DNA of 64,000 nt, taken from NCBI RefSeq assembly GCF_026571515.1, contig NW_026859253.1, forward strand, positions 124,001-188,000. The letters are read 5' to 3'. How positions within the stretch are numbered: position 1 is the stretch's first letter; every line of letters begins with the position of its first letter. The notes beneath the pieces were generated by a model, which did not search any database, was not told the origin of the DNA, and worked only from the letters and a program-made list of their open reading frames with translations. Made by a program: the position numbers and the translations under genes. This DNA comes from Ruditapes philippinarum. Taxonomy: Eukaryota. Of the stretch, positions 253-52,482 are shown piece after piece.

Positions 253-3200
253 TCAGGCATCAACTTTTCCCCAATATTCCATTGCCATGCTTCTGGCAGT
301 CTCGGGGATATTCATCATCGAGTAGGGTACAGCTGTCTTGTAAGAGATGTCATGTCCGTTCAAGTGCACGGTGATGTGTACATTGCTTAATTGCATCTTG
401 CTATTCATTGATGTAGGGTCGTATTGAAGCTAAAATTACAATTATATATAAGTAAATAACCCTTAACATTTTAGATCTATAAACCCTGCAAGGTATGTGA
501 AGATATTGTGAAGAAAAATGTTTATAACAACTATCTAATTAATCATTCCATCATTATTTGCACAAAGCAAGCAAATTTTCACTTTGATTGTGAACATTCA
601 AACATTTTTTTAACATTTGGTGTATCTTCAGCTCTATTATTGTTTGAAAAAGTGGTTATACATCAACATGTGAACACCGTTAAAGAATGCAATACTTTTA
701 ACTTTCTTTTTAAATAAGTTATACGTTAAAAAACCAGAACAAAGGTCAATAAGACAGAGGCATGTTCACAGAACGCAGCCCCAATACACTCCAGTCATAA
801 CAGCAAGGCACCAAGAAGACACCGAACCATTAAACCATAAAGGCATTAAATCAACAAAAAGAGGTCATGTGATGTTAAGATATTATATGATTTGTGTCCA
901 AAACAAGGGAAACAGACAGCATTGCCAAAATGAAATTGCGATATACAATTAAAGGATCGCAGGATACGTGCCGTGGCAGAACACATTCAGGTAGCCATCT
1001 GACGTATAAAACATATAGAAGAATATTTGACTGATGTTTAAGATTTGAAAGAGTATATTGCGTATACATGTATATCCTTTTGTTTTAGGCTTATCGACAT
1101 TTCACTAGAGTTTTGCATTTTTCTTTAATATCTCAAAAATGTCTTGTTATTGATGGAAGTTTATCAGGGCTGCTAAAGTGAAATGGAGCACTGAGTCTAA
1201 CTCATAATCCATATTAAATAAATACGAGTATATAATACTTAAATTGTAGTAAATAATGCCGTAAAATTCATTATGATTCAACTCCGAGTAAAAGTAAATA
1301 AATAGTTCATTCTAATACTGTCAAAGAGAAGTTATGCAAGCAAATACTTTGACTTTATGAAGAAAAGTACAGATTTTATTAAAAATGAATGATACCAAAT
1401 TGTGCCTTTTTAATTCAACATTTTCTTTATCTGTTGGTGAACAGACACAATTTTCGCATATTTGAAGTTCACCGAAATTATTATGTAAACCTATATAATA
1501 ACATTTTGGAATGATGATAGAATCATGTTATATTAAGTCATGATACTGACCTTTGTAATGATGGGATGTGCCTTATCTAGAGCGGCGTCATATACTTTCT
1601 GAAGCTTGCTGACCTTGCTAGTCATTGTGGTATTCATTTTGACAATGTCGGCTCCGCATACTACAGTTACAATCATAAATTCAAAATCATTCAAAACGAA
1701 AAAGAAAAATATAATACAAAATATGTATTCACCAGGCATTATCATTGTGTCGTATTATACACGGAATTCATATCATCTGCCGACTATAATTATTATAGCT
1801 CTTTGACAGCATTGTTGTTATTAACTAACTGTACTCTTCTCTTATTATTGATTACAGGCGATTCTTTTTGCAACATGCAAATTATGGGGATTTAGTTTTT
1901 TGCATAAAAGTCAAAATACAATTTTGTTTAAAGTATCGTACTTTTAAGAGTTTAAACAATACTTTCACATTTAGCTTTACTTTCTATAGGTTATATGCAT
2001 CTTTCGTGCTTCACAATACTCATGTTTGCCTCTAACGTTTCTGAGGCGTCACGTGCATTTTAAGTATATAATACAATACAAAATGCCTATTGTTTTATAC
2101 AATTATATACTTTGAACATCACTTTTGAAAGGTATCAACCGCGATCGTATTAAACGAGTTATCCGTATCATACAGTATCAATAGGTTTTGAGTTTACTTG
2201 AGTTTTTGTTGAATTCAAAAACATGATCAAGACCTACTGACTGTCAAAGTGAAAGCTTTGTAGATAAACATCAACTGGACTGAAGGAATCACGCATCTTT
2301 CTAGACAATTAGTATGCATCTTTACAGTGATCATGTCAGTTTGAATAGATTGCAGAAATGTTCAATCATTTAATAAGAATGCCTACCAGCAGTGATCACT
2401 TCAGCTTGGGTAGGTAAGAGCAATGGTCTGCAAGAAGCGCATTTTTCCATACAATGTCTTGTCTTTGCGTCGATTTCTCGTTTCTTTCCAAAGATACCTG
2501 TAATTTAAAAACGAAACTATTTGAAAACATATAATTAAATAAAAAACAGTAAAATGAACGATATATTGCTTCATCAAGATTAAACAATTGAACGTTATGG
2601 AAACAAGTTTCATGATTTCAAAATTAGTAATTTTGATCAGGGTTGTATTCTTACATATCAGACCATTAGTTTTACCGATAACGAAAACTTTATGTGGCAT
2701 TTTATAAATAAATTGCGTTAAACTGATGCTATTTCGGTGCATTTTTGAATGAAACTGCATGTCTAGGATGACGCTATTTCGTCATAATGAAGGAAGTTTT
2801 AAATCCATATTAAGGTTTTGTAAGAAAATAGTTACGGGAGAAATGATATTAATTTTCATGAAAAGTTCTTTAATCAAGGTTAATCATTATATAAAAAATA
2901 TAATATAATATGATAGAATATGGAAGAAAATAATATCTAGCATGCTTTTGCAGTTCAGATCGCAATATCTGTATATATTATAAATCTAGAAATTTCATAT
3001 CGCCGATAAGGTAAAATCCTAGGGTATCTAAATTAGAAATAATCATTGACAAGTGTTTCGATGACTTTGACTTTGAGTATTGCCATTTTTACATAGCGTT
3101 TTACAGTGTTATAACACTTACATGTAACAAAATCAAAGTCATTCATTAATTCACCTATTTATATGTGTCACATTCTTTTTCTGCTCCCTAATATTGAATT

Positions 3201-6200
3201 TATTATATTGTTTCTCGTACCTCCAATGGCATGACCTATACTGCTTCCAATATGTTCGATTTCATGACCAGCATTGTTGAGACCGTCCGTCAAACCATGT
3301 CCTAAATCTGTAAATCCGTCCCCAAGTAGTCCAGCTGTATCAATTACTGCATTACCAGCATCAGTTAAAGTACTACCCACTTTATCAAGCCCGTCTTTCA
3401 TTGTACTAAAGGCAGACTATAAATTAATGGTATTATTAGGGTAATGAAATCATATTTATAAATCATATTAAAAAGATAAGCTTTTTCGAATTATTTACTC
3501 TTCATTTGAAATTCCAAAAAGTTCTGAAAAGAAAATATTCTTCAAGAGCGATAAACGCAAAGTTAAAAAGTAAAAATGCGAGTATTTTAAGTGACAATGA
3601 ACCATTTTACATCGCTTATGCCTCTTAGCACCAGCCCAAGCAGTATGTGAACTTTAAACACAGACACGCGTTCAAACATTTATCTCGAAGGGCAAATTTA
3701 AGAAAATGTTGAAGCACAAAGATACTTGCCTATGTAAGTTTTAAAACAATAGAAACGCTTTTTAAATATCTGTGGACCGTATGCAAAGATTTGGGACTTT
3801 TCAACTTTAAAATGATGTGAAACTTGTTACAAGCGCAAACAAATCAACTTATTGATATAAGTTTATTTAATGTGTCGTCACAAAAAAATAGATAAACACT
3901 ATAGCTTACTGAGAAACCATCAGCTACCCCTCCTGAGGCAGAACCTCCCAAATCTTTCATTGACTTAACAAAACCAGCAGCTTTATCTCCAAGAAGATCC
4001 ACAGCATTACCTAATTTTCCGGCCATGTCGTTCAAAGGTCCTTCCAGATATGTGTAGGGATTGGCAAGCGCAAGATAATCCGAGAATGATGGATCAGCAC
4101 TTAAATAGAAATAACTTAAAACATTATAAATGTTATATGTAAATATAAAACATTTAAATGTTCGGATAATTGTAACATATACCGGACGGCATAGAAAATG
4201 CAAATTCGTTAGGTAGAAACAACAGTATCAACGAAGTGAAAGTGAGTTGCGTTAGTACCTATAACTTCCAAAATCCAGCAAATTTTGTGAACTTAGACCG
4301 GGTTGAATATTTTTTAGAGAGTCATGAAAATAAACGAAAATGTAACAGAAACGTATGCACAAAAGCAAACGTAGCAAGAGGGCAAAAGGGAAAACATTTT
4401 ATTAAATTTTTCAAGTTAACACTTTATCAATTATTTAGCACTTAATTTATTATTTTGACTCCACTATGAGTTGTGAAATTAAAACTTAGTTTGACCAAAA
4501 TATTCAAATCATTATCAACAGGTTTTTCTCTCTCAATCAATGTATTCTTTTTAAAACAATTTTGTAATACAGCAAGCATTTTGAATTAAAAAGAACTAAC
4601 AATTAGTAAAATTCTAAAACTCCTTTGTCAACATTAATTCTATGAATAAAGGCAAGCATCTAGATTTTAAACCAATGACACAAAGTAGAACTGGCTAAAA
4701 TTTTGTAATAGTTTTAAACATATGCCATTTATAAAAAAAAAGCGGGCGTACTGGCATGCTGATTTTGCACAACTTTTACATTCGTTAGTCTTGACAGTTA
4801 TCTTAGGTTTACAGTTGTCCATTTTAATCTTCAGCTGCTTGCTCATGTCGACAGTAGCATTCATTTCTATGGCGACCTTGTCCAGCAATGTCTGTCGGAA
4901 CAGTTGTATAAACGCTGAAAAAAAATGCTGATGACTTGCGTGTTCCTGTTTTAAAAAATCATGTTTTATTTATTTTCTGGTACACTTTATGAAAAGTGGT
5001 TTAATAACTCTTAATAACTCTTTTATTCATGTGTACGTATCGAAATATATAAGGCAAATGAATAGGTTTTTCACAGTGTTTCTTTAAATTAAAATGATAT
5101 TTATGATATTTATACTAGTTATGCATTTTTATAGCTCTGCATTTTTATAGTTCCAAAATTGATTCTTATATAAATATACAGGACAGTTACGTACTTTGTT
5201 ATATATGTATATTTGCACATATATACTTCATACACAAAACATAATTTATCGAATAACAATATACTTAAACTAATTCTAGTTATAAACCTTTATATATCTG
5301 CCAAATCAATATTGTTTTTTAAATACACATTACAATATCATACTTATTTTAGATATATTTCTGTAATAATAAGACACATAACCGATATCATATTCATCCT
5401 AGTTAGTTATATACTAGTTTTGGCATGTACATACATGACAGTACCATATACATGATAGTACCACATACATGACAGTACCACATACATGACATTACCATAT
5501 ACATGACATTACCATATACATGACCGTACCATATACATTACAGTACCATATACATGACATTACCATATACATGACAGTACCATATACATTACAGTACCAT
5601 ATACATGACATTACCACATACATGACATTACCATATACATGACATTACCATATACATGACATTACCACATACATGACATTACCATATACATGACAGTACC
5701 ATATACATGACAGTACCACATACATGACAGTACCATATACATGACATTACCACATACATGACATTACCATATACATGACATTACCATATACATGACATTA
5801 CCACATACATGACAGTACCATATACATGACAGTACCACGTACTTGACATTACCATATACATGACATTACTACGTACATGACAGTACCAAATACATGACAT
5901 TACCATATACATGACAGTACCATATACATGACATTACCACATATATGACATTACCATATACATGACATTACTACGTACATGACAGTACCAAATACATGAC
6001 ATTACCATATACTTGACAGTACCATATTCATGACAGTACCATATACATGACATTACCATATACATGACAGTACAACATGCATGACTGTATACATGGCACG
6101 TAAACAATGTACAAATAATATAACAATAAACAATATCACTCCATCCACGTGCATAAATTTGTGTACATAAATATCACACGCGTTTAACATGAACAACTTA

Positions 6201-6518
6201 ATGATTTTTCAACATATTTAGTGCAGTTATATTTCAAATAACCTGTGACTTCTTACATTTAGCATTGTAATGTTAACCTAGCTAAAACCATGTTCAATTA
6301 GTAGAATTACAATCATATCTTTTGCAAAGAGAAACTCAGTAAATAAGGCATGTCATTCTGTTTCATTTTTTTTAAATTGTACTTTGAAATAAAAACATAT
6401 GTTACAACTTATATCACATACTTTGTAGGGAAAACGTATCCATCGGCTGAAGACCACGGCGTTCCACATTGGCACCATTGGCAACAGCCAAGCATGCTAA
6501 CAAGGCTGTGAATATCAT
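253..6518 (-). CDS. Secreted 8-Cys precursor with amphipathic cassette and convertase site, paralog A (347 aa, unknown family)
   Basis: Seven exons with GT..AG introns and compatible phases (1,2,0,1,1,0): 6518-6422, 4914-4752, 4099-3910, 3416-3221, 2497-2387, 1660-1551, 429-253. Spliced ORF: MIFTALLACLAVANG-ANVERRGLQP...FRQTLLDKVAIEMNAT...NCKPKITVKTNECKSCAKSAC...LANPYTYLEGPL...GHAIGGIFG-KKR-EIDAKTRHCMEKCASC...VCGADIVKMNTT...MAMEYWGKVDA*. AATAAA on minus at 209-214. Structure confirmed by two paralogs. Confidence 0.9.
5431..6074. repeat. 17-bp minisatellite (ATACATGACA[G/T]TACCA[T/C]), about 38 copies
   Basis: Visible tandem array in intron 1 of paralog A. Confidence 0.95.
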
Positions 6519-7064: not shown

Positions 7065-9102
7065 TTTTTTAGTCTCACTCAATAATAATAATATATAAAT
7101 ATTATACGTCTGATATCCTAAATCAGTACAAATGTTTTCCTGAATATAAGCCAAATTAGGAAACCTTACGATGCTTCCTCAATAGAATCTTCATAAACTT
7201 TCCAGCATTATAGGCTATAATTCTTAATACGGAGTTAAAATACGAGTGGTTATATCACTGCACACGTGAACTCGAACGGTACATTTTGTTGTTCTGCAAC
7301 TTTTCACTAATAAAAGTGTTTATTTACGAATTTTAGATTATATCAAGATCAAAATTAAGTGCACCGAGGATTCACCTCAGGTCATTTTAGCAGAAGAAGG
7401 ATTAAGTGCGTGATGGGGCGCACCATGCTTTTATTCAGACTAAGTCCGTCAGTGATTTGCTCCCTTATCAATCTTATCATCAGTGTAAAAGGCCATACGC
7501 CGTTGTGTTAAGGTTGACCGCGTTCATTTTTGTGATGATAGTAAGAATTAAGTGATTGAGATCACACTGTGATAAGGTGGAATCATTTGAAAATGTATAA
7601 TGAAAATGTACAATGACATACAAACTGAAAACATGTTGTGTTGGGATATTTGATCAAGATATCCACGTTATAGTTTGTTTTATTATTTATACATTTACAT
7701 ATATATATAACGTAATATTACAAAACCATTCACTTTATTTATGTGCGTACTTTATGTTAGTATTTGAATTCTACAACAGTTATTTAAATATATGATTTTA
7801 TAATAGATTCTTAATATTGGGCGTGTTAATTTCCCGTTTGTCAACCATATATTAATATCTCTATAGAAATTCATAGAAATCATCAACTCCCAAATTTTCA
7901 AAATTGGTGGATTATTTCGCTTTTTTCCGGCAGTAAGAAACACTGGAAATTTTAATGTCATAAATAAACCGCCTTCCACTTGTAACGTTTACTTGACAAT
8001 ACATGACATCACACAATACAAAATACACAAATAATACACGAGACGGACCCACTTCCTTAAAAGAATTGTAATTGTCCCATTCTTGCTTTCATGGGACTAA
8101 CAACTACTGAGGACATTACTTAAAATACAATCGACCGATACAGATCTGAAATACTTGAGATATTATGTTCTTTCCTGTTCTTATATGTGAAAGCTCCAAG
8201 GAAGTCCAAAAGCCTCAAAGCATCAATATGTGTGAAATTGTAATGAGTTTTAGTCCTTTAAACGCTTTCAATTTAGGGTCATTTTGCACAATTGAAATAT
8301 TTTTTCTTAAAGAAAAAGGGAATGAGCGATTGATCTGAAAATGTGCACTCATGTTATAAGTCCTACATAAATTAAAACACAAATCTGGAGAGAAATTAAA
8401 TCAAGTCACTTCATATAAAAAATCTCAGTCAAGTTTATTTAAGACATAAATCTAATTTATGATATGGTATCCAAATTTATCTAATTGGCACTTTTATGAT
8501 TTAAAAAGTCTAAAAGGGACACTTTAAACGACTAAATTTGCTCGATTTTTCATTAGGTATGATTCTTTTCTGAGGTTGATTAGTCATTAAATGTCTCCTT
8601 AACTCATATGACAACAAAAGAATGTTCGACTTAGTATTTAAAGTAAATTTAAATAGGAAATGTAGTTAATAATGTTTTACATTTTCAAAAAATATGTGAA
8701 CATTTGTTTAAAATTGTATAATGATAACAAAGTATGTTTTGCATGGCAAGATAATGTTCAAAAGTGTTTCATTTTTAATCAAAATCATGAAACGATCTTT
8801 AAAGTTGCAATGTAATGAAACCGGACGTGATGAGTCATTGCCAACAGATGAGTATGAAGCCGGGTAAGTCTGCAAATCCAATGCAGTCTTGCAAGACTCT
8901 TGACTGCTTGTAGCTTTTTTTCTATATTGATAGTGAAAAATATTAAACTTTGAATATCCTGTTCCAAATTCATACCTGGGAAAATCCATGACACTAATTT
9001 AACAAGTTCAGGGTTAAGTGCCATGTTCTTATCTCTGAACCTTCCAAATATCCACGTCATCGTTTAAAGTTAAACTTAAGCTAAAGAACTTCTGTTTTAA
9101 CC

Positions 9103-10469
9103 ATGGTTCTTATGGTGATTCTAGTTTTTGCTTTAAGTCATACTGTTGCAGGAGGTAAAACTCAAACTGATGGTCACGTAACTGATTCAGGAATACAGGA
9201 AGTTTCCAAGCGTCTTAGCTCGCTTGAGGTTAACCTGAAACGTCAAGCAGAAGACAATGTTGTCCTTAAGCAGACGGTAGCAGATCTTCAAGAAGAAAAT
9301 CAACGGCTTTTAAGTCAGGTCAGTAGTTTACAAGCGAGCGAGACGGACATGTTTAAAGCCCTTAATGACATGCAGAAGAAAGTGGACCAGATTGACGCCT
9401 GTGATCAGAAACACGATGATAATATGCATGACGTCGTTGAGTATATAACAGAGCCCTTATACGAAGAAATAGAACCTGAAAAAGAGGATAAAATCAAAGA
9501 GCTATCCGAGACACAGCCTAAAGCTCAAAATAAAGGTGAGAGTGTTACTATTCATAAATACATGCATATGTCAGTCACATAATGAAAAACCGGCATCTTC
9601 ATTCAACTTCAATGCAAAACTACATTTTTGTTCTTCTGAAGTGATCTATCCTTTTAGCTATGATAGGACGTGTTCAACTATCATTAACCTTTTACAATTA
9701 AAACACAGAATAACAATTGGATGAACATTGATAATGATAATTGCCTTATCAATAGATAAACAAAATGGGCGATATACCGACAGTGTTTTTCTTTTTTGTG
9801 CTTCTTCTCTCGTATTTCAAAGCAATTCATTCAAGAAAGTTATGCCAAGTATTGAAACGTTTACGAACATAAAACTTCATTCAAATGTTGCGTTCCGCAA
9901 AATATATATAATAAAGAAATATATGGCATATTGATATATCAATTTATATTTTATATAAAATGTACAAGTTTTCTTTTAAAACTATTACTCATCTATTTGC
10001 AGATGCGAGAAAAATACGAAGGTCCCTTCAACGCCGGGAAAATGAATTGAATGTTTCCTTTTTTGCTACTCTCGGAAATCATCTCCAACATCTTGGAGCA
10101 AGTCAAAATATTGCTTTTGATCGAGTTATTACCAACATAGGTAACGGGTATAACAGCCATGCCGGAGACTTCAGGGCGCCTGTTGCCGGAACCTACGTGT
10201 TTTCCGTTACGTTGATGGCTTACAGTTCTTCAACAACCCATTATAACATTGTCAAGAACAGTACAACCGTGGCCAATCTCTACGTCCGTGGTATAGAGTC
10301 GCCCTATGCGAGCTCCAGTATGACGGCGGTCCTTCAGCTTCAAAAAGGAGAAGATGTTGCCATCAGAAACGTTGATACAGATAAGATGTTACACGGCTCA
10401 CACTACAGCGCTTTTTCTGGTTTTCTGCTTGACCAAGACTTTTCAAGTCCTGCAATCGTTGGGAAATAA
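9103..10469 (+). CDS. C1q domain-containing protein (signal peptide, coiled coil, globular C1q domain; 299 aa)
   Basis: Exon 1 9103-9535 (G|gtgag) and exon 2 10003-10469 (ttgcag|AT). Signal peptide MVLMVILVFALSHTVAG, heptad coiled coil, acidic linker, then gC1q motifs IAFDRVITNIGNGYN, FRAPVAGTYVFS, LQLQKGEDV, YSAFSGFLL. No collagen repeat, as is typical of bivalve C1qDC proteins. Confidence 0.93.
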
Positions 10470-24300: not shown

Positions 24301-27071
24301 ATTACGATACAATAAATGTCACAGTGAAAAACAGAATGAAATATTTAAACTAACTTACTGTACTGGTTCGAAACAGTTTGTATTTATGTGTTTTATTTGA
24401 AATAAGTAAATAAATAAATAAATAATGAAGGCAGATATATTAAACTTAAGTTTGAAACTAGTAAATTAGAAACTGAAAGGCATATTATGCCTAAGAAACT
24501 ATTCCCCCCCACCCCCTTCTTTAGAAAGGGCACACATGAGTTTTACAACGTTAAAATAGTGGTTTAAGAGCATTTATGAAGAAAATTGCGTGTAATGTGA
24601 AATATTTATCACAAAAGTATCAAAATGTAAAGAAAGTAGTACTTGACTTCCATACAAAATACTAAATCAATATATCTATTCTAACCGTCAGAATGTAACA
24701 GAAGCAAAACATGGTTCAAATAAATACTTAATTATTCATGTTTTGTAAACTTCTAAAGGCCAACAAAAATAACAAGCTTTTGATATATGAAACTGAAAGC
24801 AATGGTCAATTAAGTCAAAGTGCAATTTGTGTCAATAAACAAAAACTGTAAGATATTTTGACATGAGCTATTAGAGGCTTTGCTAAACATTGTTTACTAA
24901 TAAAGAATTGGCACAATATTCACCTACCGCTAAGGTTTCTGTTTTCAGAAAATCAGAAAATTTTAGTACTTGAAACCATAACCTGTTTGTACCAAACGTT
25001 ATTAGCCTTTGCCACCATCATAGATCCAGACCAGCTTGCACATTAATACATTCTGACCAGGCTCTATACTGTAGACTGACCAACTAAAGATTTCTATATT
25101 GATATCCCAAGAATAATAACGAACAGTTCCAAAAAGAAAGTTGCACAAATTCATCCAAGAAATACAGCAAGTTTCAACATAATGTTATTACACATTTTAT
25201 TTAAAAAAAATTAAACCCTTTTGAACATTAAATGTGATAAAGATGTGCAAGCACTGGCAAGGGTCATAAAGAAACGAGAAGAAAGATCAACAAGGCAAAA
25301 GCAACGTTCACAGGACGCAGCATAAAATACGATAATTTAAATGTCAGTTTAATAAACCGTGCCGTTAGCTCAATAGGTACAGCATTGTTATGTGATTCGC
25401 GGGGTTCGATTCCCGGACGGTGCAGGTCGCTTTCGTACTGTTTGATCATGAAGAACTTTCTACTATACTGCATGTAAAGAAGTTATCACTATACGCAAGA
25501 AATGATACGGTGCTTAACTGTGCTCTAGTAAATTCAGAAGTTATCACTATACGCAAGGAATGATACGGTGCTTAACTGTGCTCTAGTAAATTCAGAAGTT
25601 ATCACTATACGCCAGGAATGATGCGTTGCTTAACTGTGCTCTAGTAAATTCAGAAGTTATCACTATACGCCAGGAATGATGCGGTGCTTAACTGTGCTCT
25701 AGTAAATTCAGAAGTTATCACTATACGCCTGGAATGATGCGGTGCTTAACTGTGCTCCAGTAAATTCAGAAGTTATCACTATACGCCAGGAATGATGCGG
25801 TGCTTAACTGTGCTCTAGTGAATTCAGAAGTTATCACTAGACGCCAGGGATGATGCGGTGCTTCACTGTGCTCAAGTAAATTGAGAAGTCATCACTATAC
25901 GCTAGAAATGATGCGGTGCTTAACTGTGCTCAAGTAAATTGAGAAGTTATCACTATACGCTAGGAATGATGCGGTGCTTAACTGTGCTCAAGTAAATTGA
26001 GAAGTTATCACTAGACGCCAGGGATGATGCGCCGGTGCTTCACTGTGCTCAAGTAAATTGAGAAGTAATCACTATACGCTAGGAATGATGCGGTGCTTAA
26101 CTGTGCTCTAGTAAATTCAGAAGTTATCACTAGACGCCAGGAATGATGCGGTGCTTAACTGTGCTCTTGTAAATTCAGAAATTATCACTATACGCCAGAA
26201 TGATGCGGTGCTTAACTGTGCTCAAGTAAATTGAGAAGTTATCACTATACGCTAGGAATGATGCGGTGTTTAACTGTGCTCTAGTAAATTCAGAAGTTAT
26301 CACTATACGCCAGGGATGATGCGCCGGTGCTTCACTGTGCTCAAGTAAATTGAGAAGTAATCACTATACGCTAGGAATGATGCGGTGCTTAACTGTGCTC
26401 TAGTAAATTCAGAAGTTATCACTATACGCCAGGAATGATGCGGTCCTTAACTGTGCTCTAGTAAATTCAGAAGTTATCACTATACGCCAGGAGTGATGCG
26501 GTGCTTAACTGTGCTCTAGTAAATTCAGAAGTTATCACTAGACGCCAGGAATGATGCGGTGCTTAACTGTGCTCTTGTAAATTTAGAAGTTATCACTATA
26601 CGCCAGAATGATGCGGTGCTTAACTGCGCTCTAGTAAATTCAGAAGTTATCACTATACTTCAGGAATGATGCGGTGCTTAACTGTGCTCTAGTAAATTCA
26701 GAAGTTATCACTATACGCCTGGAATGATGCGGTGCTTAACTGTGCGCTAGTAAATTCAGAAGTTATCACTATACGCCAGGAATGGTGCGGTGCTTAACTG
26801 TGCTCTAGTAAATTCAATGTAGCTCCCGGTCGATATCCAGGAGGTAAACTACCAACACCAGCACCAACAACACCATATCAGTTAAGCAACCACCAACAAC
26901 ACCACGTCAGGTAAGCAACGAGGTAAAGCATGTGATTATAAAACTATGAAAACAAATAAATACAATGTACGAACCTTTTATTTCTGATTCACCCAAAGGC
27001 CGTGCCTGTGCTTCCGTACGGGTCCCTGACAGGATGACAATCATCAAAACAAACACAATAACCTTCAACAT
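21337..27071 (-). CDS. Secreted 8-Cys precursor, paralog C (348 aa, unknown family)
   Basis: Exons 27071-26975, 24179-24017, 23723-23537, 23057-22952, 22674-22471, 22006-21897, 21516-21337, same phases. MLKVIVFVLMIVILSGTRTEA...FRQGLL...CKPAMESLTAECKACTQAQC...LANPYNYLEGPL...LLPF-KRRKR-SLMN...CMEKCPPC...VCGSDVITKNET...MGVEYWYEKVVV*. Confidence 0.9.
25361..26905 (+). mobile_element. tRNA-derived SINE with an internally amplified satellite
   Basis: tRNA-like head with A box (tagctcaatagg) and B box (ggttcgattccc), body tgatcatgaa...ttctac, and a (CAA/CAC)-rich tail. Homologous to the copy at 27702. Confidence 0.7.
25478..26816. repeat. 58-bp tandem satellite, about 23 copies
   Basis: Unit AGAAGTTATCACTATACGCCAGGAATGATGCGGTGCTTAACTGTGCTCTAGTAAATTC, starting at 25478, 25536 and so on, in intron 1 of paralog C. 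Confidence 0.95.
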
Positions 27072-31710: not shown

Positions 31711-32977
31711 ACAAGAGGGCCATGATGGCCCTGAGGTCGCTCACCTGTATAAAGGCCCCCCAAACCCCCAATTGACCCAGGGCTTTTATTTGAACAAACT
31801 TGGTAGACACTTATTAGAACATGTTATATGCTAAATATCTTAGCTCTAACTCTTTTGGTTCTTTAAAAGAAGATTTTTTAAGTTTTTACTATATGCATAT
31901 AGGGAAAATCAATGACCCCCCAGGGCGGGGCCAATTTTAACCCCAGGGCTTTTATTTAAACAAACTTGGTAGACACCTATTAGAACATGTCTGATGCTAA
32001 ATATCTTAGCCATAGCTCTTTGAGTTATTTAAAAGAAGATTTTTTAAGTTTTTACTATATGTATATAGGGAAAATCAATGACCCCCCGGGGCGGGGCCAA
32101 TTTTGACCCCAGGGCTTTTATTTAAACAAACTTGGTAGACACCTATTAGAACATGTTTGATGCTAAATATCTTAGCTCTAACTCTTTTGGTTCTTTAAAA
32201 GAAGATTTTTTAAGTTTTTACTATATGCATATAGGGTTAATCAATGACCACCTTGGGCGGGGCCAATTTTGACCCCAGGGCTTTTATTTGAACAAACTTG
32301 GTAGACACCTATTAGAACATGTTTGATGCTCAATATCTTAGCCATAGCTCTTTGAGTTCTTTAAAAGAAGATTTTTTAAGTTTTTACTATATGCATATAG
32401 GGAAAATCAATGACCCCCCGGGGTGGGGCCAATTTTGACCCCAGGGCTTTTATTTGAACAAACTTGGTAGAAACCCATTAGAACATGTTTGATGCTAAAT
32501 ATCTTAGCTCTAGCTCTTTGGGTTCTTTAAAAGAAGATTTTTTAAGTTTTTACTATATGCATATAGGGAAAATCAATGACCCCCCGGGGCGGGGCCAATT
32601 TTGACCCCTGGGCTTTTATTTGAACAAACTTGGTAGACACTCACTAGAAGATGTTTCATGCCAAATATCTAAGCTTTAGCTCTTATGGTTTTTTAAAAGA
32701 AGATATTTAAAGTTTTTTCTTTCGGTTGCCATGGCAACCAGAGTTCTGCATGGAATTAAATTCTTTGAACAATTTTTAAAGGTGACCACCAAAGGAACAT
32801 TCCTGTGAAGTTTGGATGAAATTGGCTTAGTGGTTTATGAGGAGATGTCATTTAAAGTAAAAGTTTACGGACGGACGACGGACGGACGACGGACGGACGG
32901 ACGGACGACGGACGGACGCCGGACGAAAAGCGATCACAAAAGCTCACCCTGTCACTTTGTGACAGGTGAGCTAAAAA
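31711..32977 (+). mobile_element. Non-autonomous Helentron (HINE, pearl-like) carrying 166-bp tandem repeats
   Basis: 5' hairpin agggccatgatggccct; subterminal IR gctcacctgt/acaggtgagc; 5-6 repeats with a 166-bp period (31779, 31945, 32111, 32277, 32443, 32609); (GACG/ACGG)n microsatellite; 3' hairpin; A-rich flanks. Confidence 0.8.
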
Positions 32978-37600: not shown

Positions 37601-40600
37601 TTCACATGACTGTTTTTTTAACAATTGAAAACCTGTGTTTGTAACATTTACATGATTCATAAGCCTCGGAAACTCACTTGATGGTGTAAACTTTTCGTAG
37701 CTGGGAAACAAATCTGGGTATTTGTCTGTGAGACAGCTAACATGGCGACCTTTCTGTACTTTTTCTGCCAACATATCCATTTTATTCATAAAAAGAAGAA
37801 TTGACACGTTCTTTAAAAATCTGGAAAAAAAAGAATACAAAATAATGAAAGCAAAGATCGACAGTGGAAGGCAACGTTCATCGGACACCGGACGCACGAC
37901 TATCTACCCATTAAGTAACAACGAGCCACACAGGATAGAAGAAAACTGGTCTATTAATGACTGACCAAAAATGATAAGAACTCAAGCGTTCAATCTAAGC
38001 GTTTCACAAAAGCACGTTATCAATTTATTCAATAAGTCATTATCTATATTAGGCTATTGTTATACTTTGTTATACTACTGACATAATTATGAGGGATAGC
38101 ATAATATATTATAGATATTTTTAACAATATAGAAATATAGATATGCATCAAGATGACCTTCTGAATGTTATAATAATGAATATCAAGCTAAATGAATATT
38201 AAATCAATGTAATAGTAGGTTCACCAGGAACTAGATTTTGGAAAAGCTTCATTAGGGTCAGATTAATACAAATCTAAATAAAATTTGAAAACAAAATACC
38301 ACAAAACATATATTTATCGAATAGTATTATTACATTCTAATTTATTCATCGGCATTAATAATCATCAATATTCAGATTTTATATGTTCATTATTAACATA
38401 GAACATAAAAAACTGCGAAATTCTATAATGTTTCAAAAGACTGTACATAATGTTGATTTAAACATATTAATTCGATATATTTACATTTTGCATGATAAAC
38501 AATATTTACACAATACATTTTGGAATTAGGCATAAAGCTATGGAAGCTTTTAAGTGTCCTCCTCCTTGTTATATGTATTTAATGTTTGGTTCAAACATAT
38601 TTATTCCCACAAGCATATATAATGAACATGTACTTGATGTTTGAACGTGTGTCTTAATGCAAAATATAGAGAGAAAATATGAAAGTACTATGACTGTTGC
38701 TTAATTACTTTCACAAAGTACTGGCACGGCAGTACTGAACCAAAATCTAGCATTGACATTGAACATTGGTTTTAGTTGCTGATAAAATGTATCAATGATT
38801 GCGCGTGAAACAATCACCGGGAACAAAGTATTTTCATGATTTTGGTCAACTTTCTAAAAATACACATAACAAAGCTTGACGAATGTATACGCTTTATTGA
38901 TATAATTAAGGTATTGTGTCATTCCATAACGTCATAAAGGGCATTTAATGAGATATGTAAGGAAAATATTGCATAAAAAACGTGTTTCCTTAAGCTACAG
39001 TCTCACTTACATCCCGGCAGAGCCCCGGCAGAGCCCCGGCAGACGTCCGGGGTGATCCGGGAACGACCGGGGTACGACCGGGAACAACCGGGGTACATCC
39101 GTAACTCTGCCGGCAACGTCCTGGATGATCCGGGATGATCCGGGAACATCCGGCATTCGACCCCGGATGGAATAAAATATTTAATATCACCGGGATGGTC
39201 CGGGATGATCCGGGAAGGTATAGCTTTGCCGGCTTCATCCTTAGCTCTGCCGGGAACGACCGGGGTTATACCGGGAAAGCACCGTAGCTCTGCCGGCACA
39301 AACCGGGGATGATCCGGGGTATGATATAGCCGGTAGAGCTACGGTAGAGCTACGGTAGAGCCCCGGTATATGCCGGCAGAGCCCCGGTAACTACAGGCAG
39401 AGCCCCGGAGGATAAAGGTAGAGCTACGGTTGATCCCGGTAGAGCCCCGGCAAAGCCCGGATCATTTCAAAAGAATAACGACAATTTGCGATGATTGCAC
39501 TTGTTTGTATTAAAAGCCTTCCCATTTCCCTTCTATCCAGTATAGCATAAGGATTTTTCAGAAAATCATCATGAATTACTATTCTGGAACAATAGATATT
39601 ATATTAAATAAAAAATATGTATCAATGTTATCATTTTCGGGAGTTTTCAATCCACCGGGGTTCTACCGGGGCTCTGCCTGGATCGTCCTGGGCTCTGTCG
39701 GGGCTCTGCCTGGATCGACCGGGCTCTGCCTGGTCAACCGGGGCTCTTCCGGCGTCATCCGGGAACGACCGGGGAAGCACCGGCATGAACCGTAGCTTCA
39801 CCTGGGCTCTGCCTGGATGATCCGGAGCGCATCCTGGGTGGTTAGTAGGGAACTACCGTAGTGCTGCCGGGGTAAGTGTGACGCGCAACAATAATTTCAT
39901 CCCGGACCGTCCCGGACCATCCCGGTAACTTACCGGGATGGTCCTGGGCTCTGCCGGGAGTAAGTGAGACCGAGGCTTTATAGCTAGGACAGATACATGC
40001 CGCTGTTATACTCGTACAGATTATTTAATCACCAAGAAAAAAATGCACGTATACAAATATAACATGTGAATATTTGATTAGAAAAATAAACATTGTCTTA
40101 GATAAATGACGATAAAGATTCTGAAAAAAGCAGGTATTCGATTGTCTTTCCCGTCGCCTTTCCGGAACCAGCCGGATAAAACTGGCTTTATTTGTATGAA
40201 ATCATTGATCAAAACGTTATATAAATTTAACAACGTTACGTGAAATTGAGAGCCATTTGATGCGATTTTGATATGTCGGTAACACATTAAAAGACCACCT
40301 GAAGTTATACTAATGGCAGAGGATAATATGACTTCACACAGATTCGTGATTAAGGCAACTTTGTGTTTACTTCTTAACAATGAAATTACATAATCAGACT
40401 GTTAAACAATTAATTTCCCCTGACATTGTCCCAGATTCCGGACAAAAGAAAGATATTCTAGATATAAAGACACAAATACTTAATGTTCATAGAAAACATT
40501 GGAGCAAAAGTTACATTAATAATGTTTGACGTTATTATAGAATCATTGTCTCCTAAATTCAATGTTTCGTATATCTCGAATTCTTCATTTCCTAGAGACA

Positions 40601-43600
40601 ATGGTTCATATATCTCTATATTTCATTTCCTAGAGACAATAATTCGTATATCTTGAATATTTCATATCCTAGAGACAAGGATTCGTGTATCTCGAATATT
40701 TCATATCCTTGAGGCAAGGATTCGTATATCTCGTATATTTCATCTCCTAGAGACAATGATTCATATATCTCGAATATTTCATCTCCTAGAGACAATGATT
40801 CCTATATCTCGAATAGTTCATCTCCTAGAGACAATGATTCGTACATCTCGACTATTTCATCTCCTAGATTCAATAATTCGTATATCTCGACTACTTCATC
40901 TCCTGGATACAATGATTCGTTTATCTCGAATATTTCATCTCATAGAGACAATGATTCGTATATCTAGAATATTTCATCTCCTAGAGACAATGATTCGTGT
41001 ATCTCGAATATTTTTGTCCAGCATAGTGAAGTAACAGCACTTTCTTCCGCTCTTTTTGGGGTCAATGCTAAGTCATGTGAACAAGTTAAGTTTTCCAGTT
41101 TCGTCACTTATTTTGTCCATCTTGTAGCTTTTGGACGATGCCCTAGCCTCTGACAATGACGATGAGGCTTAACAACGATACTTAACAGCGAAAAATAATG
41201 ATTTGCTATGTATTTATTAGAATATTGAAATGAAAAAGAGGCTAAATGGAGTATAGCAGTGATTTGATATAGATTGTTTGGACTCGAGAAATAAAAACGA
41301 GGCTAAATGGATAAAACTGTACAAAACTGTATATAATAATTTATTACCCTTCCAGATTTTTTCCGCCTTTTTGATTGGTTATTGATCACCCGAAAGAAAT
41401 TGATATTACCGAGCCAGACGGGTAATATACACACTAAATTTCCCCGTTTGGTACCCCACGTTGTAAACAACATGCGCTGAGGTGATGCGCGTATGGTTCG
41501 ATTTTACGCGGCGTAAATTCCGATTTACAAACACTTTTTAACTGTCAAATGATAAATATTTACCAAAGTAAAGTAATGACACATATTCTCATCAGTATTG
41601 AAAACAAATATGACCTTGTGAAAGCTTGATATTAATTACAAAAAAGTGCGTTCAATAGATTACTCCTTTTCTCTTGTTTACATTCGTTAGGTACGGGAAA
41701 AAAAAAGTCAGTAATTTTTTTGAGTCATGGGCGGGTGATATAAAATCTTAGCAGGGAAAATCCCCATATATTTACTTTCCCAAAAACCCAAAAAACCCTA
41801 TAATACTTGCATTTGGGGAAACTTTATTTTAAAAACCGGGTTTTAAATTTTAATCTAAACCCTCCCTATTTTTTATTTGAAAATTTTCCCCTTTTTTTCC
41901 CGCTTTCCCCAAAAATTTCCAAGGCTTAAAAAATCGGTTTTTTTTTTCCCGGGTCTTCTCGCAATGGGTTTTTCGTAGGCTACTTTCAGTCGGGAAGAAA
42001 AAAAATTTCGGGCAAATGGGCAAAAGCTTGGGTCCCCTTTTTCCCTTCCCCTTTTCTGACCCCCTACGTTTAAACCCCATGGAAACAAATATGAAAACCC
42101 TTTTTAAAATACCCCTTACAAAAGGGAATTTAAAAAATGAAAAAAGTTCATTTAAATTAAAAAAAAAAGGAAAAGAACTATCTAAGATGAAAAAACAATC
42201 TTGAAATGTCATCATGTTTATAGTAAAAACAAAGTCAATTATTTTCCCCGTAAACTTCCTATGAATTGTTGACTGTTCAAATATTAAGCCGTTTCTATTG
42301 TACTAAGCTGCATCAATATGGAATGTTAACGTGACAATTAAAACACATTGAACCATAAATAGTTTTTTTTCTTGGCGCTTTATTAAAGAAACGTTTCCGG
42401 AACGAGGTGTATTTATGAACTAAGTAAACACAATTAGACGTGAGTCAATCAAACAGCTTAAGAAACTTCCTGTTAAAATATAAATCAAAATATTTGCTTC
42501 ACCGTGTATTACTAAAAATCAATCTGATCTTCTCGGCAATAGATGCCGACATATTGGAACCATTTTATGTCACATGCCTCCATGTGCTAAAAGTGACAGG
42601 GAAATTTCTTTTATACAGTGGGAGAAAAAGTAGTCGGCATAGACAAAGTTTGCAGAAATTGATGCGAAAGTTGCCTTTTTTGGCCAATTTGATTTAAAAA
42701 CGTCCTATAGCCCAGGGCGGGGCGGAAATTGGGTTGCTTTTTTCCGTGGTTTCCCCATCGGGGGCAACTTATCCAAGAATACGGGGGGAAAAACCCATCT
42801 TTTGGGAGTTAACAACATTAAAACTATTATGGGTTTTTTGGGTTTAACACATTTTTTTGAAAAAATTTTAGGGGAAAAAAAAAAAATCAAAACGAAAAAT
42901 GCATCGAAGCTATTTAGGGTTTTTGAAAAATCTACCCCGGGTTTCCATTTTGAGAACGGGGTCCTTTGGGAAATTTTGCTTACTTTAATTTCTTTCTAAA
43001 AGTTTGGGGAAAAGAAAATTATTTACTAAATGAACAGGATGGGCCACATTTTTAACCTCAAATTCTATTGTTGAATACTAGTAGTTAACACTCTACAGCG
43101 GAGAATATCCTGGTCCGACGGTATATAGTCCGCTTGACGTATCTCGGTCAAGTTATCTAAAAAACTAAACAAGCATATGTATTATAAAATTGTTCCATTC
43201 TGATTCCAAGTTTTAGAAATGATACATAAAACTAAAAAAGAATCTACTCATTTCAAATGCTCGAAAAAAATCTTCTTGCAATTTTTAGCATACGTCGATT
43301 TATTTGAGCAGTTTAAAACGTTGTTGTTGGTTTTTGTTTTTTTTCTTATAAGAGGTAAACGATTGCATGCCAAACTAACAAGTAAACTTGTAGATCTATT
43401 TTTGGAAAACATTGGTACTGCGCTCAAGAATACAGTTCGTACCTATCAACAAGCGCCTCGTTTATGTGACGATAAGAATTAGTGGTGTTTATGACAACTG
43501 TCCTTAAAATGCAAGCAAAAATAATGACATGTCTGTATGCATAGGCTCACGTCAACCGGCACGTTAGTTGGTCTTTTTAAATTTTTTAGTTAACTGAAAC

Positions 43601-46600
43601 ATCTCTAATTTAAAAAGGAAATTTTTAAATTTTAAAAAACCAAAACAAATTTTTTTCAAAATCAAGGGTGGGAAAAATTTTAAAAATTTTTGATATTCTA
43701 ATCAGTATTTATGCCAAAGAGGTAAAAAAAAATTTAAAATATTTTTGGGGGATCAATGAAACTGGAAATTTTGTGTGATCTGGGGAAAAAATTTCTTTTA
43801 CTCCCCCCCTTCCCTTTAAAAATTCTTTTGTGAAACAAAAATTTCTGCCCAAAAGTTTTTAAAAAAGATAGGTTTAAAAGCTATTTAAAAGTCGGGAAAA
43901 TTTAAATTTTTTTTGGAAATAAGATATACTTTAAAATAAAAAGCTATCAAAAACAGAACACCATCATCATTTCATCAACAACAAAACAACAAACCCCGTT
44001 GTCATCCCCATCAAAACATTCTGTCGTTTGTCGTTGTCAACGAAACATCACTATCACAATTTCATTATAATCTTCATCGACCGACACCCAAATAATTTTG
44101 CAAAACACTGCCACTGAATTAAAATAAAAGTCAAAAATTCTCATTCAGGGCGTAAAAAAAACCCCCGCAAAAAATACATATAGATTTTTCCCTTTAAACC
44201 CAAAAGACAGAAATCCAGTCAGGAGGCTTTTGATAAAGTTGTGCATGCGACATTCTGCAACTGTCTTATTTGTACGGTGACCAGTTACCATTCAGGTAGA
44301 ATACTGACGCAAACAGCGTTGCCGCAGAAGGAAGCATTATGATAAGTTGTAGTGTTGGCCTTTTGAAACAGTTTTATAAATACTTGTTACTAAAATCCCA
44401 TTTCAACAGCTAATGGACAAGTAGTCAATTCTTTAAAATCCCAATTACAAATCTGGTTTTTGTCAGTCTTTTAAACTAAGGGGAAAAACATGGCCCAACA
44501 TTTTGCCTATTTACAAGAAAAAATTTAATTTTGATACATTCTGGTTAAGCGCTTGTAAACCCAAATTGACCCAATTTTTTTTTGTACCGGGTTGGGGATT
44601 TCCCATGTAACTACCTCCGGTAAAATTTTTAAACATGTTAAAAGGGGGGAATATGGGGTTTACTGCAAAAGGGGGTTTCAATGAAAAAAATAATAGGGTT
44701 TAAAACAGCTGTTGATGAAAAGAAAATTTAACATTTTTTTGGTGTGCCAAGAATTTTTCTATACTTTTTGTTTTGAGTCAATGGTTTTTTCGATTAATTT
44801 GGATTGTAAAATTAAAGTTTCCCCACTAAAAGTTATCAAAACACGGTCTTTACATTTTTTTTTAGTTTGGGGTTTTTAGGGATTCTTATTTTTCTCTATT
44901 TTAAATTTGGAAAAAGAGTGGCTGTGTACATACCCCAATTTATAATAATAATTTTCCCTTTTTTCATTTTGAGGCTTAAAAATGCTTTTTTAATTGCCCT
45001 AAAAAATTTTTTTTATTGATTTCGTCCGAAATGTTTCCTTTGGGTTTTCCTGGCTCTAATCTAGGATTTAAATCAACAAGGATTGGGGGCAGTTAAAACC
45101 TCGGGGACGCTTTTGAGAAATCATTTCAGAAAATGACAAATTTCGTGTTTCTTTTTTTTGGCCCAAATTTTTTTTTTTTTCATTCATTACATACTATATG
45201 TGTGAAAAAATGAATTTGAAATTTTAAATTTTCTTTCCCTTTGGGGAAAAAAGGGGGAAAATTTTTCCATTTTTTCATTCAAAGCGCCCTGTCCGGTATA
45301 TACCGGGAACACCCCGGGATTCAGGTGGTGCTCTTTAAACCTTTGTTTTGTCTCATTTTTAGGGGTAATAAACCCTTTTGGGTTCCCCTTCCCACAAAAA
45401 TGGGCAGAAGGTATATTTTCAAAAAAAGGTTTGATTTTTTTTGTTTGAATTATTATTCTTTTATTCGTAAACTTACCTTGTCTACTTTTGTTTCCCTCTA
45501 ATCTTTGAATAAGTGGTTTCCCTTTTTTTTTTTTAATAAAAATTTTTATTTAAATTTAAATTTAATTTTCGGGAGAACACAAAAACACCCGTTTTCTCCC
45601 AAAAATCATATTTTTTAACCCTTTTTATGATTTTAATTAGGGAAAATGCCCACATTAAAAATTTTTTCTTGATTCAATTTTTAAAATCTCATTATCATCA
45701 ATACTCATCGTACTTCATCGGGTCTTGATGGTAAAGATTTTGTTTAATCCAAGAGGATATTGTTTCACAACAAATTTGTGATAGCGACAAATGTCAAACT
45801 TTTATTGGAATGCATCTTTTAAAAAAAAGGTTCTGAGAGTTGACTATAGCGAAACAAGGTTGCGGGGGTAGAATAGGACCCCTTTGTGTCGGTGAAACAA
45901 ACGTAAGCACACACACTAAATGTCAGTTTAACGGTGGAAGTGTGTCAGCGAAGAAAAAATACTTTTGTTACTGTAAACTGTTCTTCTTTTAATCGTGTGA
46001 TGAACAGATTATTAGTTTATTACGTTCAGTCAGCTTCATTGTACCTATACACATTCAATTTCCACCATCTAATAACCGTGTGTTACTATCGCAACACGGT
46101 GTAAACACTTACATACGGTGATACTTAATAGATATTTCGCTCTCTTTTGTAAAGACGAGTTATTCACTTTTCAAAGAATTCAGTTTCTTTTTCGATTGTC
46201 AGTACGTCAATAAGCTAGCTGATGGTCACTTTAACACACACGTTAATGATAATAAATCGTCAAAATTCTGGTCTTGTCGCCTATATTTCTTCAAGTTTAC
46301 TTTCATGCCAGCATCTGTCAGTTGTATAAAGTGCTTCTGATAATTCAATGAAGGGTGTGTTTTTGTTAGATATAGAATGTAATAAAATAATGCGCCTGAA
46401 ATATGTGTCATCTTTTCGTCTTACGAGATTCTCTTATTTCCAGTGACACTTCCACAATTCATATCGTTTTTAAACTATACCATCCGCGGTAGTTTAGATC
46501 ATTCTGCGTCAAATACAGAAATATAACAGCGGGTGCAGTGGTCTAGTGGTAGCGTTCTTTGATTACAAACTCAGGGCTAGCAAGTTTATCCTCCGCTACA

Positions 46601-49600: not shown

Positions 49601-52482
49601 TCACATTAAGCTGGCCTGACTTTCAAAACATGACTTATATACTCCACATTAATTCTCGTAAACTACACGGACCAAACCGAAGTGGGGTCGAATATTCAAA
49701 TGAGTGCTTTAATGTATTCATAATTGACAGGTCAATAAAATCAGACAATAAACAGGTTTATCGTGAACAAAATACCTCGAAATTGATAAGGATTACAAAC
49801 ACAAAATGGAAATTCTCAATTTAGAATTACAATGTATTTGTTTTTATTCAGGCTTCATATGACGTATTACTTCACCGTGGTGCAGGGGTATCGCGCTCGT
49901 ATCGCGCTCGTTTAGGGTGTGAGAGGCCTAAGATTCAAATCCTAGTCGAGGCAACTTTTTTTTTTGAAGTGTCTTTTTTAAGGAAGTAGCCACGATATGC
50001 AATGATAAAGTGTGGCTGTCATAAAAAAATGATTTTTGATGCAACTCTAGTCATGCAAAATTCGATATGTATCAATCTCAAACTGTTATAGAAAAAAATC
50101 TTAACGCAGTCGCTGCGTAAGATGAATTATACATGTAGTATATAAAAATAAACCTATATAGGAAAATACATACAGATAGTCAGTATGATTTAGATTGCAA
50201 AGATCAGAAAATACCACAGAGCTTGCAGCCCTTTGATTCTACTATGGTGTCGCCTGAAATGCATAACCGATCAAGATTAAAATGTATCCTTTTGTACAAA
50301 AATTTGTAATAGTTTGCGTACAAGGCAAAAAAAGAAAATGAATATCGATCAGAATGCTGTGCTCATGTCGAGCCAGTTTCACATCCCAGCTCGACATTGT
50401 AAAAAAAGACAAAAATGAATGTCGAGCTAAATGTTGTGCTGAATGTCTTGCCTGCTTCACATTCCATCTCAACAATGATAAATCGAATGTCGAACAAAAT
50501 GTTTAATGTCAATCTCTGTGCCAACATCATAGACTTAAAAAAAAGAATTATTTTTAAAGACCCATTAAGCTTTAAAATGCTATCATTTTTATCTTTTAAA
50601 AGCTTTAATTTTTAGTATCCTGCATTTTGTACGTTTCGGCATTTAGTTGAATGATAGTGAATTAGTATACTGTGCTCCTCTTAGTTCACGGTACTTAATG
50701 CTTTGAAACCAGAAAGAAAACAACAAATGAATCTTATGGTACAAAAATTGTCATAAGCTATAACATATAGGTATTTTCTGCTGTATGACACAAGGAAACA
50801 ACAATATATTCAGGCAAAGTCAATTTTAATGGACCAAACGTAGACCATATGTCGGCCATTTTGAAAACAGTATGTCATCATTTAAATTGCGGTAATAGTG
50901 TTATATTTCAGTTTTTTCATGTTTCAGTTAGAATTTCTACATGTTATTTTGCTTGATTTTAAATATTAAAGTTATCCATACTTTGTAACTCAAAATTTAT
51001 TTTTCCAACAAACAAGAACATTTAGAAAATGATGATTGTTTCAGACGTATGCACAAATTTAACGGACTATTTTGCTTTTGGCAGAAATTTGTAATATGTT
51101 GTTTTGTTTTACATAAAAATCTAGAGATTTAATTTTTTTGCAAAAAAGCTTTGTTGTTTAGGTGTATGAATAAAATATGTCAATTCTGACCAAGTTTAAC
51201 ACCGGTCAATTACCGTGCATTAAGTGATGACGCGGAATTAGTGATGTTGAGTATATTTTGTATGGAAGTCAAAATACCACATTGTTTACAATTTGCTATC
51301 TATTATACGGCAGGTGACATTTCATCTTCTTGAATTCTCGGGTTCATCAACACGAATTCACGATTTCAACGTCATGAATTCACGATTTCAACTTCAGGAA
51401 TTCACGATTTCAACTTCAGGAATTCACGATTTCAACTTCACGAATTCACGATTTCAACTTCAGGAATTCAAGATTTCAACTTCACGAATTCAAGATTTCA
51501 ACTTTATGTATTTGAAATCGTGGATAAATGAAGCTGAAATCGTGAATGCGTGAATTCCGTATGTTGAAAACGTGAATTCACGAAGTTAAAATTGTGGATT
51601 CACGACGATAAAATCGGGAATTCATGAAGTTGAAATGTTTCCCGGTCTTACATATACTTTCACGAGCTCTTTCGAATTCATTTCTATTTTTCATCAGGTT
51701 ATAAATATTTCAATTGTTCAAAGTCCATATAACAACAATATAAAACACACGTTTTCCCTTTCTACAGAAGGAAAACAAATATTTATAATCTGTGACATAA
51801 TGTGCCTTTGTAATAACGCAAGTGTCTTATTCGTAAAACAGAATAAAAATATTCCGGAACAAAATGTAATGCTGCACTTTTTAATTGGTGTTTTAACTAT
51901 TTGGCAATGAGTTTGTGCATGCGTCAATGGCTCCTAAGGACATATACCGACATATTTATTTCATTCAAATATTTAAGAATGTTTCTGTCTCAAAATAAGA
52001 TGTCTTAGCTTTATACAGAAAGAATTTCTATAGAAACAAAAATGTTCTCTGATAGATTCCTTCGAAAATCAACCACAAGATCATGGAAACCAAAGAATTT
52101 TACAATGTTAAAGTAAAAAATGTAATTAAATATGATTTTATACCTTAAAATAAAAAAAAACAATTAGCTTTAAATCAAAATACAAGTATTCAAATTTTAG
52201 ACAGAAAAAGTTCAGAAATGGTTCACAGCGCAGCTTAAATGAAAGAGAGTTATGTTGAAAATGAAAATAAAGACTTTCTTCTAAAATATTAAAAAATGTA
52301 TAGGACTTACCTAATAAGAGTATTTTTAACTTTTTCATTTCCTGTCTTTGATAATCTTTAAGTACTTTAGTGATTTGCTTGTTCCTCATCTTCGCAAGCC
52401 TCGCTTCTTCTGGGCAATCATAATAAGGGTAGGCATTACCATAGCAACTGCTACCAAAACAAGCCATTACGTCCTCCTTCAT
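34639..52482 (-). CDS. Heterotrimeric G protein alpha subunit, divergent G-alpha-s/G-alpha-f-like
   Basis: Clean exons: 52482-52311 (…KILLLG), 48389-48317 ([21 protein letters not shown]), 37820-37678 ([15 protein letters not shown]), 36550-36405, 34824-34639 ([32 protein letters not shown]). Indel-damaged exons: ~47291-47240, ~44508-44395 (tentative), ~43844-43738, 43164-43027 ([30 protein letters not shown]), ~42078-41890 (VGGQ, LRED). All G1-G5 motifs are accounted for. Confidence 0.88.
35622..36290 (-). mobile_element. Possible second HINE-like element in the last G-alpha intron
   Basis: Inverted repeat AGCGAGCTCG / CGAGCTCGCT near both ends, plus hairpin ggcccgaagggcc next to a T run. 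Confidence 0.4.
38993..39977. mobile_element. PIF/Harbinger-like non-autonomous DNA transposon
   Basis: TTA direct repeats at 38990-38992 and 39978-39980; TIRs AGCtaCaGTCTCACTTAC / GTAAGTGAGACcGagGCT; GC-rich subterminal CCGGCAGAGCC arrays in opposite orientation at each end. Confidence 0.8.
40560..41012. repeat. 39-bp minisatellite, about 11 copies
   Basis: Unit ATGATTCGTATATCTCGAATATTTCATCTCCTAGAGACA. Confidence 0.9.
48070..48300 (+). mobile_element. Interspersed repeat (MITE-like); second copy at ~24980-25175
   Basis: Shared motif agcctttgccaccaktatagakccagrccagcytgcaca in both places. Confidence 0.5.
51352..51636. repeat. 22-bp tandem repeats followed by degenerate inverted copies (foldback)
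   Basis: GAATTCACGATTTCAACTTCAG about 7 times, then reverse-complement copies such as tgaagttgaaa and cgtgaattc. Confidence 0.8.

Follow-up and report, generated by a model that had tools for sequence, protein, structure and literature searches.

The 64,000-nucleotide stretch of Ruditapes philippinarum DNA analysed here (NCBI RefSeq assembly GCF_026571515.1, contig NW_026859253.1, positions 124,001 to 188,000; hereafter, the window) is AT-rich animal DNA that carries on its minus strand three tandem paralogs, A, B and C, which, on sequence grounds, are very probably distant homologs of clusterin (apolipoprotein J), a chaperone that is secreted and carries lipids. They probably represent a new invertebrate variant of this protein, related to it by descent and working in the same way, and are placed outside the vertebrate family proper because they have eight cysteines instead of ten, fall below the Pfam cut-off and differ in the composition of their tails. 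A preliminary description of the locus had recognised a disulfide-clamped, two-chain architecture, which is retained here, and had overlooked both the link to clusterin and a glycine amidation signal at the cleavage site.

Taken as a whole, a mechanism of the clusterin type appears likely. The protein would be a secreted glycoprotein, held together by four antiparallel disulfides, that a convertase cuts at a run of basic residues into two disulfide-linked chains; the basic end would then be trimmed, with amidation following in A and B, and the long tethered arm produced in this way would bind lipid particles or exposed hydrophobic surfaces of misfolded protein, keeping both soluble for uptake. 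Cleavage would probably free and finish the end of the arm, and not switch the protein on. By analogy with clusterin, it is reasonably probable that the role of these proteins is that of an exchangeable apolipoprotein or extracellular chaperone, solubilising lipids and damaged proteins for uptake.

Kinship with Clusterin

Family searches returned 13 close relatives and then 93 representatives at E<=0.001. Of 102 proteins, 45 were kept that have both cysteine clusters (42 by pattern; P0071, P0078 and P0043 by hand), while fragments and truncated models were left out. With A, B and C these make the 48 members to which the counts below refer; the members are related to one another, and orthologs of A, B and C are among them. 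Those named come from the bivalves Mercenaria, Ruditapes, Mactra, Mya, Potamilus, Sinanodonta, Solemya, Mytilus, Pecten, Mizuhopecten and Tegillarca and, outside bivalves, from amphioxus, and all are annotated as “uncharacterized” or “hypothetical” or are unnamed. P0103 (Branchiostoma belcheri) is annotated as a fusion with a reverse-transcriptase domain, probably a gene-model artefact.

When an arm-poor profile of the family (A4) was compared with the PDB, human clusterin was the sole match (E 0.0036), with the cysteines aligned; it was not among the PDB matches of the arm-rich profiles A1 and A2, nor among those of the single sequences P0001 (the Mercenaria ortholog of A), P0078 and P0097. 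Clusterin ranked first in four of six fold searches, with modest scores, and the shortest member, P0043, brought no gain of score in Foldseek (E 0.077). The gathering score of the Pfam Clusterin family (PF01093), 23.6 bits, was not reached by P0001 (14.6) or by the best members, P0097 (23.1) and P0078 (22.6), the latter, from amphioxus, aligning to positions 329-428 of the model. The matches of A1 and A2 to talin, apolipophorin III, haemagglutinin HA2, spike heptads and tape measure proteins were compositional and helical, and a viral-fusion or pore-forming reading was dropped with them.

An unrelated disulfide-clamped coiled-coil hairpin that acquired its CxxC pattern by convergence would fit the sub-threshold Pfam, Foldseek and VIA scores, the structural identity to clusterin of 8-13% and the lack of a usable match in the ESM Atlas for P0001 or P0078, a result that says nothing either way. 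This explanation is nevertheless very improbable, since five features agree in their order with clusterin: the cysteine spacing of both clusters, the position of the site, the collinear profile matches from the N- to the C-terminus, the sheet-and-helix domain at the C-terminal end and the single PDB match. A prediction of the complex between residues 16-219 and 223-347 of P0001, made without alignments, scored 0.46 against 0.02 for the best control, with at least 36% contact agreement among runs and a partner pLDDT of at least 48; it is taken as weak support and is not leaned on. Of solved complexes, 51 of 78 pass the mark used for such predictions, as do 2 of 108 mismatches; scores of 0.60 or less comprise only 5 of the 78 solved complexes and all 4 passing mismatches of 180, and a like structure, that of clusterin, is already solved.

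Vertebrate clusterin (PDB 7ZET, 7ZEU) is cut by furin between two cysteine clusters, which antiparallel disulfides link to each other (PMC12527946, PMC10488069). Like it, the clam proteins have a putative signal peptide, two cysteine clusters with a first spacing of 10-2-4, a basic site between them, a flexible segment at the cut and N-glycan sequons, and the coiled-coil, disulfide and alpha/beta roll domains predicted for them would follow in equal order. They differ in having four predicted disulfides instead of five, in being about 100 residues shorter, in bearing two or three sequons instead of six, and in forming a tandem multigene family, whereas human CLU is single-copy. A further difference lies at the cut itself, which in A and B bears a glycine amidation signal and in A is only dibasic; ahead of it stands a Gly-rich amphipathic arm of 104-133 residues in place of the short tails rich in Phe, His, Arg, Pro and Ser of clusterin.

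Gene Models and Transcripts

Each paralog has seven exons with shared intron phases, and their mutual identity is 33-42%. A encodes 347 residues (6518-253), B 322 (15886-12229) and C 348 (27071-21337), and no fourth copy was found by tblastn within the window. The features are as follows, all on the minus strand.

6422..6518: A exon 1, signal peptide (judged by inspection), then a short pro-segment with RR (residues 20-21) at its end
4752..4914: A exon 2, a long helix at the N-terminus and the first cysteine cluster (C67, C78, C81, C86)
3910..4099: A exon 3, first half of the amphipathic arm, helices in the model
3221..3416: A exon 4, Gly/Asp-rich amphipathic arm, mostly disordered (166-212 in the ortholog model)
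2387..2497: A exon 5, F-G|KKR site (basic run 2486-2478, Gly before it) and C231, C235, C238
1551..1660: A exon 6, C254 and the return helix of the coiled coil
253..429: A exon 7, three-stranded sheet and last helix, counterpart of the clusterin alpha/beta roll domain
15886-15799, 15259-15097, 14602-14419, 13949-13820, 13411-13289, 12798-12689, 12399-12229: B exons 1 to 7
13400-13383: B site, G-KRRRKR
27071-26975, 24179-24017, 23723-23537, 23057-22952, 22674-22471, 22006-21897, 21516-21337: C exons 1 to 7
22657-22643: C site, F-KRRKR, without Gly and followed by a 35-residue spacer

The transcript check covered A; B and C were modelled from homology and from their splice sites and open frames. 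In A, the contigs of run X1 contain each of the five junctions between exons 2 and 7 as a GT-AG joint, and those of run X5 contain four of the five; the joint 4099-4752 is present in transcript contigs, and exon-1 sequence occurs in X5 contigs as a loose end at 4914. Venerid clams are the closest relatives that bear a name: A shares 91% identity with Ruditapes P0007 (189 residues) and 82% with P0001. B is 88.7% identical to P0011, and C 49.9% to P0014. The exons of A (window 253-4914) are covered deeply in the X1 and X5 contigs, and no spliced A reads were found in the raw RNA runs X21 (4% read) and X23 (6% read), a pattern suggestive of tissue- or condition-restricted expression.

The N-termini of all three proteins are hydrophobic, as judged by eye, and there are two N-glycan sequons in A, two in B and three in C. 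The additional RR of A lies just past the signal peptide (window 6461-6456, minus strand, from codon positions); a K/R-R pair within the first 35 residues is found in 16 of the 48 members and suggests a short pro-peptide in most of those 16.

Cysteine Clusters and Disulfide Pairing

The mature regions of A and C have cysteines at residues 67, 78, 81 and 86 (exon 2), 231, 235 and 238 (exon 5) and 254 (exon 6), and that of B at 64, 75, 78 and 83 and at 208, 212, 215 and 231. The eight conserved cysteines in two groups of four noted earlier are thus present in every paralog, although the codon of the eighth one in A (at 1658) lies beyond the interval described at that time. The spacings, 10-2-4 and 3-2-15, are the same in the three proteins, and the first of them, C-x10-C-x2-C-x4-C, is that of clusterin C102/113/116/121. 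The disulfides of the human protein are given as 102-313, 113-305, 116-302, 121-295 and 129-285 (PMC10488069), and mapping these pairs onto A predicts with good confidence an antiparallel ladder C67-C254, C78-C238, C81-C235 and C86-C231. The disulfide-clamped two-chain protein with a tethered amphipathic arm that had been proposed is supported and matches the architecture known from clusterin, with the pairing itself inferred.

Variation among the members is consistent with such a ladder, since cysteines are mostly gained or lost as cross-cluster pairs. The two clusters have four cysteines each in 35 members, five each in five members and three each in four. It is exactly C86 and C231 that are missing in the three-cysteine group, while in the five-cysteine group both cysteines of the fifth clusterin pair are present and two members match six of eight clusterin spacings; ten-cysteine relatives close to the spacing of clusterin occur in mussel, scallop, ark shell and amphioxus. 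On a quick tree (SH-aLRT support only) the three- and five-cysteine states each fall in two places, which implies few events. One observation weighs against the predicted pairing: C81 is lost but C235 kept in four members of two lineages and in the truncated P0005, leaving an odd cysteine that the ladder does not explain. In P0003, P0004, P0005, P0009 and P0012, where the third cysteine of the first cluster is gone and its predicted partner kept, the odd cysteine may serve to form covalent dimers.

Cleavage Site and Amidation Signal

The consensus for furin is R-x-K/R-R, and KR is a site for PC1/2. A K/R-R site precedes the second cysteine cluster in 48/48 full-length members, a conservation which argues that the basic site is not due to chance. 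B and C belong to the 23 members with a furin consensus (R-x-K-R in both), whereas A has no R-x-K/R-R and only the dibasic KR, a point on which the earlier description is corrected. A basic site is found at the start of exon 5 in all three paralogs, as had been stated, but not at the same position, since in C it lies 35 residues ahead of the first cysteine of the second cluster, compared with 8-9 residues in A and B. A cut between the clusters is quite likely in all three, by a furin-type enzyme in B and C and by a dibasic-site convertase in A. A chain of C starting with SNDD, also suggested previously, finds no support, as it would be preceded by a single Arg.

In 44 of the 48 members, A and B included and C not, a Gly stands directly ahead of the basic run, a count that is the same for the first and for the longest run when these are chosen without regard to the preceding residue; Gly occupies this position at 3/63 other K/R-R sites of the same proteins, and 6.8 cases would be expected from the composition of the arm. 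On the quick tree, the Gly signal is common by descent from bivalves to amphioxus and has been lost in three lineages. The residue ahead of the Gly is Phe in 27 of the 44, Trp in 5 and Leu in 4, and such aromatic-Gly-basic endings resemble those of amidated neuropeptides. They are what a prohormone releasing the arm as an amidated signalling peptide would show; this explanation is hardly credible, because A and C have no K/R-R anywhere between the first cysteine cluster and the main site, and B has only KK pairs there. With no convertase site ahead of it, the arm would stay tethered on the N-terminal chain.

In mussel peptides, Gly followed by basic residues is described as a signal for amidation by CPE and PAM (PMC5577615). 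Trimming of the basic residues and amidation by PAM, slightly more likely than not, would give an end in Phe-amide in A and in Leu-amide in B, while the first chain of C, which has no Gly, would not end in an amide. Alternatively, the Gly could be a structural helix cap in a clusterin homolog that is cut partly or never and acts as a single-chain apolipoprotein. The furin consensus is missing in 25/48 members, A included, single-chain clusterin keeps most functions, and in the ortholog model a helix end (210-219) lies directly ahead of the site. This possibility is improbable, however, in view of the K/R-R retained in all members from bivalves to amphioxus despite the diverging arm around it, and of the second dibasic site found past a spacer in several members, as expected of processed precursors.

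This second site lies 15-25 residues downstream of the main one and could allow a connecting peptide to be excised. In P0026, P0029, P0030, P0032, P0033, P0053, P0055 and P0056 a spacer of 20-35 residues precedes it, while the spacer of C (22642-22538) ends, unlike that of these relatives, with only a single Arg.

The Amphipathic Arm

The arm has 133 residues in A, 109 in B and 104 in C (28-246 in the family). Its hydrophobic moment peaks at 100 degrees, with z values of 7.7, 4.4 and 4.5, respectively, and z is above 3 in 46/48 members. The pooled composition of the arms is 14.9% G, 8.9% S, 8.8% L, 7.5% D, 5.7% F, 2.4% P, 1.9% H and 1.5% R. According to the model of the A ortholog, helices 103-141 and 144-164 are ordered and only 166-212 is disordered; the segment described earlier as a looped-out cassette is thus probably not wholly looped out, its first half being modelled as helical. 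The long amphipathic helices with a periodicity of 100 degrees recall apolipophorin III, ApoA1/E and ApoC-I. The arm alone gives weak profile matches to apolipophorin III and ApoC-I, which, standing amid many unrelated helical ones, reflect composition and not kinship, and unlike the exchangeable apolipoproteins it would be tethered to a disulfide-clamped scaffold.

In human clusterin, the segments at the cut site and the adjacent amphipathic helix are required for chaperoning and for the formation of lipid discs, whereas an uncleavable furin-site mutant has normal lipid binding, almost normal holdase activity and a partial defect toward A-beta (PMC12527946). By analogy, the arm would be the working surface of the clam proteins and cleavage would tune it rather than arm it. 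The “protease-armed” arm put forward in the preliminary description is accordingly doubtful and finds no support, given that uncleaved clusterin binds lipid normally and that A and C have acidic arms, unlike lytic cationic peptides.

The main competing explanation is a defence effector armed by cleavage, in which an amidated amphipathic peptide on a clusterin-like scaffold attacks or coats microbial membranes only once the cut has been made. The tandem duplication, the transcripts of A that are abundant in some runs and near-absent in others, and an arm hypervariable in length and in charge (from -21 to +38) are in keeping with it, and the Gly-dibasic ending is that of the mussel myticalins. 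These precursors of amidated antimicrobial peptides of bivalves are likewise a multigene family in which a hypervariable region ends in Gly-dibasic, with predicted amidation by CPE and PAM (PMC5577615), and Pro/Arg-rich cationic arm ends occur in some of the relatives studied here. Myticalins, however, release free a cationic peptide of 23-42 residues (PMC5577615) and have no demonstrated homology to A, B and C, whose arms exceed 100 residues, are often acidic and are predicted to be tethered to a folded domain. The net charge of the arm is -11 in A, +5 in B and -10 in C, and it is -8 or lower in 17/48 members and +8 or higher in only 2/48. As lipid binding by clusterin needs no cut and C has no Gly, the defence effector is unlikely; it is most plausible for the cationic relatives. 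Two members, P0065 (Mytilus, +38) and P0047 (+31), are strongly cationic, and Pro-Arg-Ile-Arg repeats, which also speak for this explanation, occur in P0047, P0029 and P0032. The arms of P0065, P0047, P0029, P0032 and P0073, strongly cationic or with endings of Pro-Arg-Ile/Leu-Arg repeats, resemble antimicrobial peptides that have been fused to the scaffold.

Significance

In the 2025 structure paper, clusterin is called a vertebrate protein and phylogenetically young, and the alignment in its figure comprises jawed vertebrates only (PMC12527946). No paper on an invertebrate clusterin was found in the searchable literature, which lacks most subscription journals, so prior notice is possible, and none was found on six gene ids of the family; the one bivalve mention examined concerned clusterin-associated protein 1, a different gene. 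If inherited vertically, the homologs in bivalves and amphioxus would date the clusterin fold, together with its processing into two chains, to the base of the bilaterians, and the kinship would give a name to a family so far annotated as uncharacterized wherever checked. Its natural variants, with three, four or five disulfide rungs and arms that range from short to long and from acidic to cationic, could serve to test the roles of cleavage and tails in an Alzheimer-linked chaperone. With a conserved amidation signal on an arm that stays tethered, enzymes of neuropeptide processing would be put to an unusual use, and the signal could lead to a lipid-transport or immune protein that has been overlooked in farmed clams.

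A broader view, tentative and rather doubtful, is that the ancient bilaterian scaffold of clusterin is a display platform in invertebrates, on which a hypervariable arm becomes, through the action of convertase, carboxypeptidase and PAM, an amidated peptide tethered by disulfides, the arm being tuned among paralogs from acidic (scavenging of lipid and debris) to strongly cationic or Pro-Arg-rich (membrane-attacking host defence). Such proteins would form an unrecognised class of tethered amidated effectors, likely the ancestral state of the tails of the vertebrate chaperone.

Other Features of the Window

Between A and B, on the opposite strand, lies a two-exon gene (9085-10469, plus strand) that encodes a coiled coil at the N-terminus and a C1q domain (Pfam E 1e-24), as is typical of the C1q-domain genes of bivalves. 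An open reading frame at 52138-52488 (minus strand), without a Pfam match, resembles exon 1 of a G-protein alpha subunit. Minisatellites are found in intron 1 of A (5431-6085, 17 bp) and of C (25478-26816, 58 bp), and at 31772-32717 (166 bp), 40549-41013 (39 bp) and 61547-61981 (33 bp). Homopolymer-rich sequence resembling low-quality sequence, and N runs, occupy about 41800-46000, 53950-54100 and 58640-59220.

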